Shown here one piece after another: positions 12,919 through 53,245 of a DNA stretch of 64,000 nucleotides. Each line of letters begins with the position of its first letter. Within the stretch, counting starts at the first letter, position 1. The stretch lies in the NCBI RefSeq assembly GCF_044324785.1, contig NZ_CP172127.1; one strand, written 5' to 3'. The notes under the pieces were generated by a model. It saw nothing but the letters and a program-made list of their open reading frames with translations, had not been told where the DNA came from and did not search any database. A program made the translations under genes and the position numbers. The DNA comes from Escherichia coli. Lineage in GTDB: Bacteria; Pseudomonadota; Gammaproteobacteria; Enterobacterales; Enterobacteriaceae.

Positions 12919-14451
12919 TCAGGTGCCGATTATGCCGCCGTCGGCTTTTACGATAACGACAGTTGAGGAGCGCGGACGACCAGCCTTATCGCCGTCAGGC
13001 CAGCTTGATACTGCCGTCGGATGCTGCGGATCGCTAAGCCCTTCGCTTGGCTCGCCAGGGTGCTGGATGTTAATAAACAGCGTCCGGTTATCCGGAGTGA
13101 ACGCGATGCCGGTGATTTCGCAGCCGCGCGGGCCGGTCAGGAAGCGGCGGAACTCATTGGTACCGGGGATCGTCGCCACCATCTGGTTGTTGCCCATGCC
13201 TTTGTAATCTTTAATATTTATGGTTGATGACGACACGTCGGTCTGGATCCATAGCACGCCGCGGTGATCAAAGCTCAGGCCATCGGCGCTGCCGAATTCC
13301 GCACCCTTCATGCTGCCTTTGGTTTCCAGTTTGTCTGTATCGGTGCGACCGCCCATCACAAGAATATCCCAGGCAAACTGCAGCGCGGTCGGGTCACCGT
13401 TATGCTCCAACCAGTGAATGATGTGGCCGTAAACGTTTTTGGCGCGCGGGTTGGCCGCATCCACTGGCGCTTTTCCTTCCTTACCGCGATCGCTGTTGTT
13501 GGTGAGCGTGCAGTAAACGCTGCCGGCGTGATATGGATCGACCGCAATCCACTCCGGGCGGTCCATTTTAGTGGCCCCCACGGCGTCTGCCGCCAGACGG
13601 GTTTTAATCAACAGGTCGCCCTGGTTTTCAAACCCTTTACTGGCGTCGAGCCCATTTTGTCCGAACACCAGCGGTAGCCACTCGCCTTTGCCGTCGTCGT
13701 TAAATTTCGCCACGTACAGAGTGCCTTTTTCCAGCAGGTGCATGTTGGCTTTGCGATCCTGCGGGTTGAATTTTCCTTCCGAGACAAATTTATATATGTA
13801 TTCGAATTTCTGGTCATCGCCCATATAGACCACAACGCGGTTATCCGGGGCAATTGTCACCGCTGCGCCTTCGTGTTTGATGCGACCAAGCGCGGTGTGC
13901 TTGCGCGGCACTGAATGCGGATCGTATGGATCGATTTCCACCACCCAGCCGAAGCGGTTCGGCTCGTTCGGCGTGGCGTCGACGCTGAACCTTTTATCCA
14001 CTTCGTTCCAGCGGTAAGAGTCGTCGCTCCCGCTGATACCGTAACGTTTTTCCAGCGGGTTCATCTCTGCTTTTTTTACGAAAATATCGGACCAGTTCTC
14101 TTCACACGTCAGATAGGTGCCCCACGGCGTAAATCCGTTGGCACAGTTCTGCATGGTGCCGAGAATGATTTCGCCTTTCGGATCGTCAACTGTTTGCATC
14201 AGTGGGTTATGCAGCGCCGGACCGGTGATTTTCATCGGCGTGTTAACGGTGATGCGGCGTGCGAACGATGACGGGCGCACCACTTCCCAGCCCAGGGGCA
14301 CTTTTTTTACTTCAATGACCGACACGCCCATCGCGTTCTGGCCTTTAAGAGCTTTATCGGCGCTCCAGTTGGCATCGCCATCTTTAAACAGTAGACCGTT
14401 ATCGATGTATTCATGGTTTATGGCAAGCAGGCCGTGATCGGAGCTGTTCCC
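12919..14451 (-). pseudogene. phoX: PhoX-family (DUF839-like) secreted phosphatase gene, 3' part, separated from its 5' part by the prophage
   Basis: Reading frame continues exactly from the fragment at 52793-53245 across the target-site duplication (...SLPQGGN | SSDHGLLAINHEY...); the first 16 codons of ORF 12919-14499 are phage-end derived. Confidence 0.65.
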
Positions 14452-14529: not shown

Positions 14530-15102
14530 TTACATTTCAGGTTGCGTTATGACAGTCCCAACAGGGTGGTAGCGGTAGATCGTTGACAGTCCAATATCAT
14601 AGATAATTGCCAGCCGCTTTCTGTCATACCCTTTCTGGAGCAATCTTGCGATCTGCTCATGCTGCTCCTTCGTCAGTTTCGGGCGACGTCCTCCAACTCT
14701 TCCTTGTGCTCGCGCAGCAGCCAGTCCTGCCAGCGTGCGCTCAACTATCAGTTCACGCTCCATTTCTGCCAGTGCACCCATCATATGAAAAAAGAACCTT
14801 CCCATCGGAGTGCTGGTATCGATTGAATCCGTCAGACTGCGAAAATTGACACCTTTTGCGCGTAGCTCTTCTGTGAGAGCAATGAGGTGTTTCATTCTTC
14901 TACCCAACCGATCCAGCTTCCAGACCACCAATGTATCCCCTCTTTTAAGGCACTTTAAAGCGCGTTTCAGGCCTGGTCGTTCCGACTTGGTTCCGCTCAT
15001 TTTGTCCTCAAAAATCTGTTCACATCCTGCGCACATTAATGCATTGCGTTGCAAATCTGTGTTTTGGTCATTTGTTGACACACGTATGTAGCCAATCAGC
15101 AT
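14530..15102 (-). CDS. pin: Site-specific DNA invertase, Hin/Gin/Pin serine recombinase family
   Basis: MLIGYIRVSTNDQNTDLQRNAL...GDTLVVWKLDRLGR...MGALAEMERELIVERT is the invertase catalytic domain plus C-terminal HTH; adjacent to tail-fibre cassettes. Confidence 0.9.
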   Translation of the reverse strand: MLIGYIRVSTNDQNTDLQRNALMCAGCEQIFEDKMSGTKSERPGLKRALKCLKRGDTLVVWKLDRLGRRMKHLIALTEELRAKGVNFRSLTDSIDTSTPMGRFFFHMMGALAEMERELIVERTLAGLAAARAQGRVGGRRPKLTKEQHEQIARLLQKGYDRKRLAIIYDIGLSTIYRYHPVGTVITQPEM

Positions 15103-15147: not shown

Positions 15148-15173
15148 GGAGGATTTGAGAGATAAACGTTGGT
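15148..15173. other. Putative invertase crossover site A (gix/pix-like), core AAACG-TT-GGTTT
   Basis: Core AAACGTTGGTTT at 15155-15166 at the start of the conserved ~200-bp fibre box; identical inverted core at 16779-16790. Confidence 0.45.
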
Positions 15174-15686
15174 TTAGGAGAAGGCTCGGCGCTACCCGTT
15201 GGTGTGCCTGTTCCGTGGCCCACCGCCACACCGCCAGCAGGCTGGTTAAAGTGCGACGGGCGCGCCTTTACAAAAGAACAATATCCTGTTCTGGCCAGAG
15301 TCTACCCGACCCTCCGTCTTCCCGATTTACGCGGTGAGTTTATCCGTGGATGGGACGACGGGCGCAAAGTTGATACAGGACGTAAGTTGCTGTCCGCACA
15401 AGGGGCAACGCTGTTAAGAACAGCAATGCTGGATTATTATAACCAGGACACTACGGGAACCTCGGGGATAGTCGGCATGGGATTCAACAATGAAGATTCC
15501 ATTACAGACCTTCGTGAGGGCAGCTTTAAAATGCCGGACGGGACAACATTCAGCGATCCTGTCGTGGCAATGTCAGACAATGGTATGCAGGCTACTATTC
15601 TGACCTCTATCAGAAGCGGGTATGCGAAGGGTATCACTGTCAGACCCCGTAGCATTGCACTTAATTACATTGTGAGGGCAGTTTAA
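15150..15686 (+). CDS. Tail-fibre C-terminal cassette 3 (start-less alternative variable domain)
   Basis: Frame opens after TGA at 15147-15149 with no ATG; encodes the conserved box GEGSALPVGVPVPWPTATPPAGWL...RGEFIRGWDDGRK then a unique C-terminus ending NYIVRAV. Confidence 0.7.
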
Positions 15687-16300
15687 TGAGTAACACTGCA
15701 GTTCTGGATGAAAACGGTATCGCCACTGTAGCGGGCGAGATCACTGTATATCACTATGACGAGGAAACCCGGGAATACACCTCATCCTCTGTGGAGTATC
15801 TCGCCCTTGGGGTGGGTACTCCGGCACATTCGTGCGCCGATGCACCGCCGGAGGCAATTTCGGGTTACGTGGTTTGCCGGACTGCCACGCTGAACGGGTG
15901 GGAGCATGTGCCTGATCACCGCGGCGAGACGGTATACAGCACGGAGAACGGTAACCCCGTTCTGATTACCCAACCGGGTGATTACCCGGCGGACACCACC
16001 ACAAAACAGCCGGCCACGCCATGGGATACCTGGAACGGTGAGGCGTGGGTAACCGATACTGAACGGCAGCGAGCCGCAGAACTGGAGGTTGCCAGACAGC
16101 AACGCCAGCAACGGGTGAAACAGGCGATGGCGTCCGTCGATCTTATCAACCTCAAACTGCGTGCTGGTCGCAGTCTGACACCAGAAGAAACGGCAAAACT
16201 GAACGCCGTGCTGGATTATATCGACGAGCTGAACGCACTGGATATCAGCACGGCACCTGAAATCAGCTGGCCGGAAGCGCCACTGGCACTTGCCAGCTGA
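15686..16300 (+). CDS. Tail fibre assembly protein (Tfa/U-like)
   Basis: ATG overlaps cassette-3 stop (TAATG); 204 aa, in the position and orientation of a Tfa chaperone for cassette 3. Confidence 0.65.
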   Translation: MSNTAVLDENGIATVAGEITVYHYDEETREYTSSSVEYLALGVGTPAHSCADAPPEAISGYVVCRTATLNGWEHVPDHRGETVYSTENGNPVLITQPGDYPADTTTKQPATPWDTWNGEAWVTDTERQRAAELEVARQQRQQRVKQAMASVDLINLKLRAGRSLTPEETAKLNAVLDYIDELNALDISTAPEISWPEAPLALAS

Positions 16301-16306
16301 ACGGTA

Positions 16307-16780
16307 TCACGCCGCCCTCACGATATAGTTAAACGCGATATTGCGGGGGCGGGTTATGTTAAAGAATGCTCCGTTTAATTCGGCTTTTGCGCGACTGTTT
16401 GTTCCACCCAGAATTGCGTACCACAAATAATCGCTACGGTAATTCCCCGCAAACACCTTATCGCCGCCATAGTCAATATTATTTCCGTTACTCATGTACG
16501 AGATATCCAGCGAAGAATCGTTATCGTCATGACCGCCGACCAGTGTACCTTTCTGCCATGAAAGCAACTTACGCCCCTCGTCAATCTTGCGCCCGTCGTC
16601 CCATCCACGGATAAACTCACCGCGTAAATCGGGAAGACGGAGGGTCGGGTAGACTCTGGCCAGAACAGGATATTGTTCTTTGGTGAACGTAGCTCCGTTG
16701 CACTGTAACCAGCCTGCTGGCGGTGTGGCGGTGGGCCACGGAACAGGCACACCAACAGGCAATGCAGAGCCTTCCCCCAA
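16307..16780 (-). CDS. Tail-fibre C-terminal cassette 2 (unfused alternative variable domain, TTG-initiated frame)
   Basis: Begins with the same conserved box as cassettes 1 and 3 but has a different distal sequence; lies directly after the main fibre stop in +1 frame. Confidence 0.55.
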   Translation of the reverse strand: MGEGSALPVGVPVPWPTATPPAGWLQCNGATFTKEQYPVLARVYPTLRLPDLRGEFIRGWDDGRKIDEGRKLLSWQKGTLVGGHDDNDSSLDISYMSNGNNIDYGGDKVFAGNYRSDYLWYAILGGTNSRAKAELNGAFFNITRPRNIAFNYIVRAA

Positions 16781-16798
16781 ACCAACGTTTTTATGCGG
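16773..16798. other. Putative invertase crossover site B (inverted relative to site A)
   Basis: + strand AAACCAACGTTT at 16779-16790 is the reverse complement of the site A core. Confidence 0.45.
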
Positions 16799-18719
16799 CC
16801 CTTACGATGTAATTAAACGCAACATTGCGGGGGCGCATTGATATCCATGCCCCGGTAAAATTATCCTCCGCTGTCCTTTGAATACCCGTTATAGAGTTAT
16901 CTGCTGATGCAGGAACATAATCGCTATTATTTCCTGCTTTAGGATTAGCTGGGTTTCCAACGGTTATAACAGAATCAGCAGTAGCAAAAGCGATACCTAC
17001 TTTGACATTAGTATTCAGATCGTAACCGTAATAATCCTGCAAAGCTGTACGAATAAATGTTGCAGCCTGACCACTTAGCAATGAACGCCCCGTATCAACT
17101 TTGCGCCCGTCGTCCCATCCACGGATAAACTCACCGCGCAAATCGGGAAGACGGAGGGTCGGGTAGACTCTGGCCAGAACAGGATATTGTTCTTTTGTAA
17201 AGGCGCGCCCGTCACACTTTAACCAGCCTGCTGGCGGTGTGGCGGTGGGCCATGGAACAGGCACACCAACAGGCAGTGCAGAGCCTTCCCCCAAACCAAG
17301 GTAATTGAGGACATCTTTTATACTGCCCTTAGCGATAATAGCGCGACCAATAGCTGTAAGGGTTGCCAGCGCTGCGCGGTCTGCTCCGGTAAAATAAGGC
17401 AACCGATCTGCTGCAGTGGCAAGTCCTGCCAGAGCAGTGAGCGTGGCATCTGCCGGTTGTTTTCCGTTTGCCAGATCGTATGCAGCCTTGACCGCTTTCG
17501 GTGTGGCGGCCAGTATTTCAGACGTGCTGTTGATGGCACTGCTCAATTGTATGGTGCCTTTTGCCGTCAGCGAGGCAGCAGGCACTCCCGTTATCTGACT
17601 CCACGGGTGAGTGTGGCTGACGGGCGCCTTGCCGGCTGCAAGGTCGTATGCAGCCTTGACCGCCTTCGGCGTGGCAGCCTCAGTTTCTGATTGACTGTCC
17701 GTGGCGCTGCTCAGTTGTACGGTGCCTTTTGCCGTCAGCGAGGCAGCAGGCACTCCCGTTATCTGACTCCACGGGTGAGTGTGGCTGACGGGGGCCTTGC
17801 CGGCAGCCAGGTCATATGCAGCCTTGACGGCCTTTGGTGTGGCGGCCAGCGTTTCAGAGGTGCTGTTGGTGGCACTGCTCAGTTGTACGATCCCTTTACG
17901 GGTCGTTGTTGCATCCTGGGCTGTGTATTTTCCCCGGGCCAGATCATACGCGATTTTCACAGCCTTCGGCGTGGCAGCCTCAGTTTCTGATTGACTGTCC
18001 GTGGCGCTGCTCAGTTGTACGGTGCCTTTTGCCGTCAGCGAGGCAGCAGGCACTCCCGTTATCTGACTCCACGGGTGAGTGTGGCTGACGGGGGCCTTGC
18101 CGGCAGCTAGGTCATATGCAGCCTTGACGGCCTTTGGTGTGGCGGCCAGCGTTTCAGAGGTGCTGTTGGTGGCACTGCTCAGTTGTACGATCCCTTTACG
18201 GGTCGTTGTTGCATCCTGGGCTGTGTATTTTCCCCGGGCCAGATCATACGCGATTTTCACAGCCTTCGGCGTGGCAGCCTCAGTTTCTGATTGACTGTCC
18301 GTGGCACTGCTCAGCTGTACGGTGCCTTTTGCCGTCAGCGAGGCAGCAGGCACTCCCGTTATCTGACTCCACGGGTGAGTGTGACTGACGGGTGCCTTGC
18401 CGGCTGCAAGGTCGTATGCAGCCTTGACGGCTTTTGGTGTGGCGGCCAGCGTTTCAGAGGTGCTGTTGGTGGCACTGCTCAGTTGGGTGAACCCCTTAGC
18501 TGTCAGTGTCGCGTCCGGGTGGTTACGGGAACGTACGTGTTCAGCCAGTGACTGTGCGGCTTCCTCCGTTTTTTTCTTCAGCCATTTCGTCCTGTTTGCC
18601 AGTTGCCGGGGGGCTCGATTTGATATCCCGTCAGCACCACCCAGAACCGGATCTGATGTCTCCAGTTGATAGATTTTTTCTTCCCACTTTTCTGTTTCAT
18701 TCAGGTTTCCCATAATCAA
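16791..18719 (-). CDS. Tail fibre protein (642 aa) with internal repeats and C-terminal cassette 1
   Basis: Repeated QLSSAT..SET.AATPKAVK.AYDLA.GK fibre repeat motif; C-terminal region carries the conserved box and ends NYIVRAA. Confidence 0.85.
   Translation of the reverse strand: MIMGNLNETEKWEEKIYQLETSDPVLGGADGISNRAPRQLANRTKWLKKKTEEAAQSLAEHVRSRNHPDATLTAKGFTQLSSATNSTSETLAATPKAVKAAYDLAAGKAPVSHTHPWSQITGVPAASLTAKGTVQLSSATDSQSETEAATPKAVKIAYDLARGKYTAQDATTTRKGIVQLSSATNSTSETLAATPKAVKAAYDLAAGKAPVSHTHPWSQITGVPAASLTAKGTVQLSSATDSQSETEAATPKAVKIAYDLARGKYTAQDATTTRKGIVQLSSATNSTSETLAATPKAVKAAYDLAAGKAPVSHTHPWSQITGVPAASLTAKGTVQLSSATDSQSETEAATPKAVKAAYDLAAGKAPVSHTHPWSQITGVPAASLTAKGTIQLSSAINSTSEILAATPKAVKAAYDLANGKQPADATLTALAGLATAADRLPYFTGADRAALATLTAIGRAIIAKGSIKDVLNYLGLGEGSALPVGVPVPWPTATPPAGWLKCDGRAFTKEQYPVLARVYPTLRLPDLRGEFIRGWDDGRKVDTGRSLLSGQAATFIRTALQDYYGYDLNTNVKVGIAFATADSVITVGNPANPKAGNNSDYVPASADNSITGIQRTAEDNFTGAWISMRPRNVAFNYIVRAA
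17286..17311. other. Putative crossover site C inside the main fibre gene (one half-site degenerate)
   Basis: Reverse complement reads TCAATTACC-TT-GGTTTGGGGGAA; right half conserved, left half diverged. Confidence 0.3.
17290..18510. repeat. Tandem ~300-bp coding repeats within the tail-fibre gene
   Basis: Shadow ORFs 17779-17994 and 18079-18294 are identical (300-bp period); 17834-18088 and 18134-18388 near-identical; protein shows about seven copies of a 45-55-aa motif. Confidence 0.75.
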
Positions 18720-52792: not shown

Positions 52793-53245
52793 GTTCCCGC
52801 CCTGCGGCAGGCTAAACCACGCCATGCCGTCGTGGTGCATCCCGGCCTGCGCCGCCTGTTCTTCCGTGGTGTTGCTACCGTCGGTTTTAAAAACCGGCAG
52901 ATTTCCGGCAATCCCGGTGGCGTCGCCCCATTTGTAGAAGGGCTTCGCGATGTATCCTTCCGGCACGATAACGGTATCTTCCGTGGAAACCGGCAGGCTG
53001 GTGAAACCGAGCGTCGTCGCTTTGCCGAGGTTACCGCTTGCTTTGGAGACCACTTTCGCCAGCGCGTTTTCCTGTTTCAGCAGAAATGGGAACGCTGCCG
53101 CGGCACCGGCGACCGTGCCTGCCTGTAACAGACGGCGGCGTGACAAATAGACTTCCGCCACCTGCGAAAACGCGCGGTTATCGCTCGGGTTACTGATTTC
53201 TTCACTATGCTCACGTTTGAATAAAGTTTTTAACGGTCTGCCCAT
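52793..53245 (-). pseudogene. phoX: PhoX-family secreted phosphatase gene, 5' part (Tat signal), separated from its 3' part by the prophage
   Basis: Twin-arginine motif SRRRLLQAGTVAGAAAAFPF; frame terminated by TGA supplied by the prophage terminal TGATCA. Confidence 0.65.

Follow-up and report, generated by a model that had tools for sequence, protein, structure and literature searches.

The window, the 64,000-nucleotide stretch of Escherichia coli DNA that we analysed, holds a 38-kb Mu-like transposable prophage with a BcepMu-like layout. Within it, directly after baseplate J-like and P2 gpI-like genes, lies a tail fibre gene (Table 1), which the listing of open reading frames starts two codons earlier, at a TTG at 18719. 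A long terminal inverted repeat was searched for at the prophage end and none was found at up to six mismatches; the other end was placed by where host sequence resumes and by a direct repeat. The fibre protein is identical to RefSeq WP_074441576.1, annotated 'tail fiber protein', and carries the Pfam domains PF03406, Collar (PF07484) and PTR (PF12789). The protein scores well above the gathering cut-off of PF03406 (427 bits, cut-off 22; E = 2.6e-131), in seven stretches. Together with the Collar domain, matches to PHROG tail-fibre families and the baseplate J and gpI neighbours, this match bears out the tail-fibre assignment of the initial annotation.

Downstream of the constant part of the fibre lie three alternative tip cassettes and a serine DNA invertase, which likely starts at MLIGYIRVST (ATG at 15100–15102) and is annotated in relatives as a 190-aa recombinase. 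Inverted repeat arms pair 15166–15439 with 17029–17302 and with 16560–16790, and the boundaries of the crossover sites are those we assume by analogy with the gix/cix pattern. Two features of Mu/P1-type inversion are present, namely an adjacent serine invertase and inverted crossover sites bracketing in-frame alternative cassettes. The Sv1 tip resembles the T4 gp37 tip (2XGF) and a short tail fibre (9CUY), and Pfam recognises Collar in the Sv3 region and Caudo_TAP in the tail-fibre assembly chaperone gene. All three tip fusions and a flipped internal segment occur in other genomes: Sv2 is joined to the constant part in CP013831, and Sv3, followed by tfa, in CP083481. Judged from this arrangement, receptor specificity is predicted to be set separately from the repeat array, by three invertase-exchanged tips.

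Table 1. Features of the tail fibre locus, in window coordinates.
Feature	Position	Strand	Remarks
Tail fibre gene, Mu S / P2 H-like	16791–18713	−	640 aa; ATG at 18713
Non-repeated N-terminal region, presumed baseplate anchor	18507–18713	−	aa 1–69; precedes repeat 1
Repeat 1, L	18339–18506	−	56 aa; PF03406 core + linker GKAPVSHTHPWSQITGVPAAS; Pfam stretch 71–109
Repeat 2, S; first half of 300-bp unit 1 (u1)	18207–18338	−	44 aa; linker RGKYTAQDAT
Repeat 3, L; second half of 300-bp unit 1 (u2)	18039–18206	−	
Repeat 4, S; first half of 300-bp unit 2 (u3)	17907–18038	−	2 synonymous bases vs repeat 2
Repeat 5, L; second half of 300-bp unit 2 (u4)	17739–17906	−	1 synonymous base vs repeat 3
Repeat 6, S/L chimera	17571–17738	−	N-terminal half S-type (TVQLSSATDSQSETEAATPKAVK), C-terminal half L-type with HTHPW
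Repeat 7, diverged terminal form T	17439–17570	−	44 aa; ends GKQPADATL
Non-repeated distal constant segment, array to crossover site	17312–17438	−	97–100% identical in relatives
Inferred 26-bp invertase crossover site A, constant part/variable tip junction	17286–17311	−	The three cassette junctions share homology from this point
Tip cassette Sv1, currently expressed, receptor-binding	16791–17285	−	Collar (aa 485–532) + variable C-terminus
Crossover site B + silent tip cassette Sv2	16307–16797	−	Site B at 16772–16797
Inverted crossover site C + silent cassette Sv3 + tfa	15157–16300	+	Site C at 15157–15182; Sv3 to 15686; tfa at 15686–16300
Serine DNA invertase, Gin/Cin/Pin/Hin type	14530–15102	−	Resolvase PF00239 + HTH_7

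Anatomy of the repeat array

The array spans fibre residues 70–425 (1.07 kb, window positions 18506 to 17439) and occupies the place expected of a shaft, with the N-terminal region on one side and the switchable receptor-binding tip on the other. The N-terminal region is 98.6–100% conserved across all related loci and is presumed to anchor the fibre to the baseplate, on the model of Mu gp49, whose N-terminus docks on the wedge protein gp48 (PMC11915804). The seven PF03406 stretches measure 56, 44, 56, 44, 56, 56 and 44 aa in turn, in agreement with the roughly seven copies of a 45–55-aa motif first proposed for this gene. Two forms are present, L (long; 56 aa, 168 bp, with HTHPW in its linker) and S (short; 44 aa, 132 bp), and the order is L-S-L-S-L-L-T, T being a 44-aa terminal form that is the last repeat in every relative.

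One S and one L together make a 300-bp unit (100 aa), of which there are two near-identical copies flanked on either side by diverged repeats. The two units differ at 3 of 300 bases, and every change is synonymous, which argues for selection on the protein and for recent duplication. Repeats 1, 6 and 7 are diverged, with 58–88% nucleotide identity to the other repeats, and in the amino acid identity matrix repeat 6 is 80% identical to S and 86–89% to L; its chimeric structure fits an unequal crossover in the past.

Tandem Repeats Finder detects an array of period 300 at 17662–18485 (2.7 copies, 98% matches, 0% indels, score 1585) that overlaps one of period 168 at 17469–17897; a score this high cannot credibly be put down to chance. 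A repeat search found four copies of 300 nt, all in register, at 17470, 17638, 17938 and 18238, with 78–100% identity to the reference copy. When the sequence is compared with itself at an offset of 300, identity is unbroken over at most 197 bp (18305–18109); one mismatch and a further 146 identical bases follow, so that 343 of 344 bases match. The near-perfect identity described in the initial annotation thus stands, but its length, given as at least 216 bp, was slightly overstated. The interval it proposed, 17290–18510, takes in the array and about 150 bp of non-repeated constant sequence, up to the inversion crossover site.

Relatives of the repeat and of the fibre system

The repeat belongs to the 'Phage tail fibre repeat' family, PF03406 (Phage_fiber_2 or 'Pf2'), also found in lambda Stf, E. 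coli K-12 StfR and the collagen-like fibres of EHEC prophages, with which the window fibre shares a motif of about 42 aa (xKGxVQLSSATNSTSETLAATPKAVKxAYDLA) that stands in tandem in trimeric side and tail fibres. The family is widespread, with 2282 cluster representatives matching at E ≤ 1e-3, some of them with 15–16 stretches. Pf2 has been described in lambda Stf and StfR, and repetitive fibre domains vary by whole repeat units (PMC3368898). Unlike those fibres, the window protein has a regular higher-order unit of 100 aa built from two forms (56 and 44 aa), and it is a Mu-like myovirus fibre with Collar tips and without collagen or PfN/PfC domains.

In its genetic setting the locus resembles Mu S (gp49; PDB 5YVQ, 8JU3, 9KI1) with the G-segment and Gin: the fibre gene follows baseplate wedge genes, a constant N-terminal part is combined with alternative C-terminal tips, and a serine invertase and a Tfa chaperone are present. 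The solved Mu S fibre has a single PF03406 repeat (residues 104–148), which aligns to the window repeats, whereas the window fibre has an array, and sequence comparison with Mu S detected no similarity outside the repeat. The window tips are of the Collar type, related to the T4 gp37 tip and unlike those of Mu S, and cassettes and crossover sites each number three, against two in Mu.

A second likeness is to the S fibres of P1 and p15B and those of P1-like phage-plasmids. In the P1-like fibres in the database, 9–11 L and S repeats are followed by a crossover site and Collar-type tips. These P1-like arrays begin with S and are more regular than that of the window, and the N-terminal anchor differs (MNDVTVV... 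versus MGNLNETEKWEE...). The presence of more than two crossover sites and several cassettes recalls the Cin/Min type of multiple inversion, in particular the Min system of p15B, reportedly described by Sandmeier et al. in 1992.

Copy-number alleles among related prophages

Alleles of different length occur on near-identical backgrounds. The window, DA33135 and FDAARGOS_1303 have seven repeats (LSLSLLT). KS21 has five (LSLLT) and is 300 bp shorter, with one mismatch in 3.4 kb upstream and 100% identical array flanks, whereas CP013831 and CP083481 have nine (LSLSLSLLT) and are 300 bp longer, with zero and one mismatches, respectively, to the window in the upstream 3 kb. Exactly the pair u3–u4 (S+L) is missing in KS21 and duplicated in the two nine-repeat alleles. 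The alleles therefore differ by whole units, and the unit lengths, 132, 168 and 300 bp, are all multiples of three.

Across 16 related loci the array ranges from 3 to 9 repeats, with an intact reading frame in every one, and database proteins sharing the N-terminus of the window fibre reach 10. The comparison of related prophages thus returned variable copy number (3 to 10 repeats), and the exact 300-bp steps between the five-, seven- and nine-repeat alleles support the early suggestion that these repeats are prone to expansion and contraction. All copy numbers were taken from directly parsed sequences, because the span of a BLAST match is an unreliable proxy for diverged arrays: it is 932 bp in both HSP60 (five repeats) and AR_0058 (three repeats), and 764 bp in TUM17543, which has six. 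Collapsed assembly could account for short alleles in some records, for instance that of the partial PhiKM genome; the three-repeat architecture is also present in the complete genomes EC958 and AR_0058. The literature searched yielded no specific report of variable copy number in this fibre.

Probable origin of the variation and its possible bearing on fibre length

We read the locus, with a probability of about 0.82, as a seven-copy PF03406 array in the constant, shaft-like part of the fibre, whose copy number varies by recent in-frame recombination or slippage and would set fibre length. Judging from the sequences compared, copies most likely misalign during homologous recombination (unequal exchange) or replication slippage, which would add or remove whole repeats in frame. 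As the periods are all multiples of three and exact identity extends to 197 bp, repeats can be gained or lost without breaking the frame. Change in copy number is very recent in this phage lineage, as shown by five-, seven- and nine-repeat alleles on an otherwise identical background, and recurrent in the wider family. Sequence alone does not tell apart the contributions of RecA-dependent exchange, slippage and phage recombination functions. A diversity-generating retroelement was also considered and dropped, the differences between units being few and synonymous; there is no reverse transcriptase among the neighbouring genes checked.

The alternative that survives best, possible though on the unlikely side, is that the repeats serve mainly as shared homology for the exchange of distal fibre parts between unrelated phages, with length variation as a neutral by-product. 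Sandmeier (1994) and Haggard-Ljungquist et al. (1992) are said to have proposed such a role for repeat homology. Fibres with P1-like or other N-termini carry the same repeat types, in 9–11 copies (SLSL...) on contigs of about 90–100 kb, and GPEC172 and P0009 combine a Mu-like N-terminus with distal repeats of P1-like type (TTQKGIVQLSSDTNS...HTHPWNQITGVPTAS), a mixed architecture that implies a crossover inside the array. Some of the 90–100-kb contigs with SLSL... fibre arrays are annotated as plasmid. However, the protein sequence of the units is strictly conserved, with synonymous differences only, and the repeats are therefore more than patches of DNA homology. Exchange is moreover compatible with an effect on length, and both can hold.

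That the array is old and static, and its copy-number differences the outcome of ancient divergence between distinct fibre genes, is very unlikely. Many relatives with other copy numbers do differ by about 2% in flanking genes, and three of the window repeats are well diverged, as would suit an ancient array, but the alleles set out above differ by exactly one unit pair on backgrounds with at most one mismatch and identical array flanks.

An assembly artefact, the possibility that the initial annotation had itself raised, is extremely unlikely. An array of this length, built of 300-bp units that are 98–99% identical, exceeds short reads, and short-read assemblers, by duplicating or collapsing reads of a shorter or longer array, can mis-size it. 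Yet the same 1929-bp allele occurs at 99.8–99.9% identity in at least eight independently assembled complete genomes (H5–H12) and at 99.1–99.4% in six more (H14–H19), of which H14 was checked and encodes the same protein. The 2149-bp spans of this second group had been considered as five-repeat alleles with reordered cassettes, a reading ruled out by the sequence of H14, in which a normal seven-repeat gene is followed by a flipped Sv3–tfa segment. The same protein accession recurs in further genomes, the reading frame is intact with all inter-unit differences synonymous, and the prophage is inserted at differing chromosomal sites: in a PhoX-family gene in the window, gspL in DA33135, yecR in KS21 and others elsewhere. 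With the seven-repeat allele in at least 14 independent complete genomes, the array is therefore not an assembly artefact.

There is a negligible chance that the repeats work as DNA or RNA, for example in regulation, packaging or the binding of a recombinase, rather than through the protein: nothing specific points to such a role (several opposite-strand reading frames of 84–99 aa are expected from repetition alone), whereas the array lies within an uninterrupted 640-codon reading frame with seven matches to a curated family of protein repeats, varies between units exclusively at synonymous positions and has the invertase crossover sites outside it.

On our preferred reading of in-frame gain and loss, each trimerised repeat would add one module between the baseplate anchor and the receptor-binding tip, and for that reason copy number would set fibre length and reach. 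It is reasonable to infer that length changes in this way, given the position of the array in the protein and the analogy with other systems. In the pseudo-repeats of the adenovirus fibre shaft, the repeats of the T4 long tail fibre and the duplications of tape-measure proteins, the number of in-frame repeats sets fibre or tail length, as experiments have demonstrated. These are functional analogues, unrelated in sequence to the repeat region, in which the effect on length was observed directly; here we infer it.

Predicted models are of low confidence. An AlphaFold2 monomer of the full fibre, built on a 41-sequence alignment, has a mean pLDDT of 39 and a pTM of 0.19, and its only recurrent feature is a helix of 11–13 residues at PKAVKAAYDLA in each repeat. 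A linked pseudo-trimer, in which one S+L unit was repeated three times with Gly-Ser linkers on a 16-row alignment from a search of 1.84 billion proteins, has a pLDDT of 27. The linker of the L form contains HTH, and in the T4 gp37 tip HxH motifs bind metal ions (PMC11990801); by analogy, a metal-bound HxH 'rung' in each L linker could make the fibre stiffer.

The differences in copy number could be selectively neutral. It is a speculative and rather unlikely further step that they form a second fast-evolving axis of host adaptation, with the five-, seven- and nine-repeat alleles selected rather than noise. If so, the invertase would choose the receptor while recombination in the array would tune the reach of the tip through O-antigen or capsule of differing thickness.

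Public databases already contain the repeat family, its occurrences in lambda Stf, Mu S and P1-like fibres, and this very protein; modular tail fibres rich in repeats are a textbook case of mosaic phage evolution. In that sense the array is an ordinary, catalogued feature, of little importance beyond good annotation. Fibre genes of this family are, however, easily mis-sized or mis-annotated, because the array exceeds short reads, and several intact ones appear in public records as pseudogenes or under unrelated names. The five-, seven- and nine-repeat series on an identical background is a handy natural set for relating fibre length to adsorption, and in ST131-associated prophages repeat copy number should be treated as variable when these phages are engineered or typed.

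Repeat array and fibre gene

The repeats lie in a minus-strand open reading frame. In its product, Pfam recognises PF03406 ('Phage tail fibre repeat') seven times (E = 2.6e-131) and a Phage Tail Collar domain at the C-terminus, with a weak PTR match falling on the linker. PHROGs searches return tail-fibre families, homologues of P2 gpI, baseplate J and gpW are encoded upstream on the same strand, and the placement of the repeats inside a tail fibre gene by the initial annotation is upheld. Translation most probably starts at the ATG at 18713, which gives 640 aa and is also the annotated start of the identical RefSeq gene in other genomes. The listed start, a TTG at 18719, falls in the region where the upstream gpI-like gene terminates (stop 18716-18718).

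Tandem Repeats Finder detects a period-300 array of 2.7 copies (98% matches, no indels, score 1585) and a second, overlapping array of period 168, and a repeat search of the window recovers four 300-nt copies in register. The 300-bp repeats are indeed near-perfect; the identity of at least 216 bp first reported was slightly too strong, as the longest exact run in a direct scan at offset 300 is 197 bp (18305-18109), followed by one mismatch and then 146 identical bases. Translation yields seven repeats of 56, 44, 56, 44, 56, 56 and 44 aa, in agreement with the estimate of about seven motif copies. The long form (L, 168 bp) ends in the linker GKAPVSHTHPWSQITGVPAAS and the short form (S, 132 bp) in RGKYTAQDAT. 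The array reads L-S-L-S-L-L-T, with a diverged terminal form (T) as its last repeat, and each 300-bp unit consists of one S and L pair. Between the two central units (repeats 2 and 3 versus 4 and 5), 3 of 300 bases differ, all synonymous. Repeat 6 is a chimera, S-type in its first half and L-type in its second, a structure suggestive of an old unequal crossover at the ATPKAVK core, which is shared and conserved.

An HxH-containing motif, SHTHPWSQITGVP, is present in the long-form linkers of repeats 1, 3, 5 and 6 (for example, 18380-18366), and this motif, with its HTH, is kept in distantly related fibres (P0150, P0206 and P0210). It resembles the HxH motifs of the T4 gp37 tip and may bind metal as they do, which we regard only as a lead.

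The PF03406 repeat corresponds to the 'Pf2' domain, which was first noted in lambda Stf, is also found in StfR and EHEC prophage fibres, and was of little-known structure in 2012 (PMC3368898). A 169-aa L-S-L query matched 2282 cluster representatives, including some giant fibres with 15-16 stretches. The feature is ordinary: both the repeat family and the kind of gene are known, and RefSeq already holds the exact protein. Misannotation caused by the repeats touches the loci of B36 (L005), GPEC172 (L010), AR_0058 (L011) and PhiKM (L001), and the database proteins P0035, P0036 and P0068. PGAP breaks fibre ORFs that are intact (487, 631 and 426 aa) into 'incomplete' pseudogene fragments, the fibre carries the name 'short-chain fatty acid transporter' in some database entries, and in PhiKM the name 'Fe2+ ABC transporter permease' is given to an opposite-strand ORF that overlaps the fibre gene at its end.

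Prophage setting and invertible tips

Up to 14451, the E. coli sequence flanking the element matches a PhoX-family gene region of many strains at 100% identity, and the element, with 5'-TG and CA-3' ends, is bordered by a direct repeat inside that gene. Its closest named phage is PhiKM, classified under Bcepmuvirus. Near-identical copies occur in other strains in gspL, yecR, mdfA and yfaL, next to aroA or sufB, and elsewhere. The element is a transposable Mu-like prophage with a BcepMu-like layout. Late genes are on the minus strand; putative early/transposase genes were assigned from ORF sizes and layout only.

The gene containing the array continues directly downstream into an invertible region of the Mu Gin, P1 Cin and p15B Min kind. 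Of the three homologous junctions in this region, two are direct and one is inverted; it also holds three alternative tips with Collar domains (Sv1, currently expressed, Sv2 and Sv3), one tail-fibre assembly gene and a serine invertase. In other E. coli genomes (L012, L013 and L014), all three tips are fused to the constant part, and the inner segment is also found flipped. Since each tip is found fused to the constant part elsewhere, the array is placed in the constant portion of a fibre whose specificity can be switched. One chaperone gene is present for the three tips, and Sv1 and Sv2 have no same-orientation chaperone gene directly downstream.

Features of the prophage, its fibre gene and the invertible region
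Feature	Position	Strand or orientation	Remark
Direct repeat GTTCCC	14446-14451 and 52793-52798		borders the element
Prophage	14452-52792		38.3 kb
Serine invertase	14530-15102
Multi-cassette tip region	15157-17311		three crossover sites
Crossover site C	15157-15182	inverted	inferred
Tail-fibre assembly chaperone gene	15686-16300	+	follows Sv3, co-oriented with Sv3 only
Crossover site B	16772-16797	direct	inferred
Fibre ORF as listed	16791-18719	-
Crossover site A	17286-17311	direct	inferred
Seven translated repeats	18506-17439	-
Repeat 6	17571-17738	-	chimeric
Period-300 array	17662-18485
Putative early/transposase genes	44-52 kb	+

Copy number among related prophages

Copy numbers were read from the parsed fibre genes of the window and 15 related loci. 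The gene has three repeats in PhiKM, EC958 and AR_0058, four in B36, five in KS21, A24, NRZ14408, HSP60 and 30224_1#201, six in TUM17543, seven in the window, DA33135, FDAARGOS_1303 and GPEC172, and nine in CP013831 and CP083481, with architectures including LLT, LSLT, LSLLT, LLLLT, LLLLLT, LSLSSLT and LSLSLSLLT; database proteins sharing the N-terminus have up to ten (LSLSLSLSLT). The decisive comparison is confined to the close sub-lineage, defined by 0 or 1 base different in 3-3.4 kb upstream and by array flanks with at most 2 mismatches in 150 bp. Here the unit pair formed by repeats 4 and 5, and nothing else, is missing from KS21 (-300 bp), and CP013831 has this pair twice (+300 bp). Both length changes are recent, whole-unit, in-frame events. 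Arrays composed solely of L repeats before the terminal form (HSP60, TUM17543, P0010 and P0041) show that the 168-bp unit also amplifies alone.

Near-identical units could also arise in assembly, from collapsed or duplicated reads, but such an origin is improbable here. At least eight complete genomes carry the same 1929-bp gene at 99.8-99.9% identity, the same protein accession occurs in further genomes, the chromosomal position of the prophage differs among them, and the five- and nine-repeat alleles recur in several independent records. The initial observation is correct, and its interpretation, that the array is prone to expansion and contraction, is supported by the 300-bp steps in the close sub-lineage and by the range of 3-10 repeats among relatives.

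Proposed recombination within the array and its possible effect on fibre length

The L and S forms also occur in P1-like fibres, where they number 9-11 copies; the contigs concerned are ~90-100 kb long, and some carry a plasmid annotation. Two Mu-type fibres, in GPEC172 (L010, 3788-5683) and P0009, have P1-type distal repeats, which indicates that exchange between phage families occurred inside the array, which therefore also acts as an interfamily crossover point. Such a role is reportedly the classical view of tail-fibre mosaicism, associated with Haggard-Ljungquist in 1992 and Sandmeier in 1992 and 1994. P0105 was noted alongside these two fibres; a Mu-like N-terminus can precede P1-like end repeats.

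Copy number would change when units recombine homologously out of register or when replication slips from one unit to another. The perfect identity between the units that would recombine, 146-197 bp, comfortably exceeds the minimum needed for efficient homologous exchange in E. coli. Each trimerised repeat would add a module along the fibre axis, and copy number would set the distance between baseplate anchor and tip. The positional argument for the repeats as shaft modules is good: in Mu gp49, the N-terminus docks on the wedge and the C-terminus binds LPS, with a single such repeat at residues 104-148. AlphaFold2 models were of low confidence, with a pLDDT of 39 for the monomer and 27 for a linked pseudo-trimer. 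Known fibres differ in their rise per residue, from ~0.55 Å (T4 long fibre) through ~0.9 Å (adenovirus shaft) to 1.5 Å (coiled coil); on these values one 100-aa unit would lengthen the fibre by very roughly 5-15 nm, which is an estimate rather than a result. The series of five-, seven- and nine-repeat alleles in an identical prophage background could serve for an experimental test of whether fibre length matters, and is in this sense the one mildly useful outcome.
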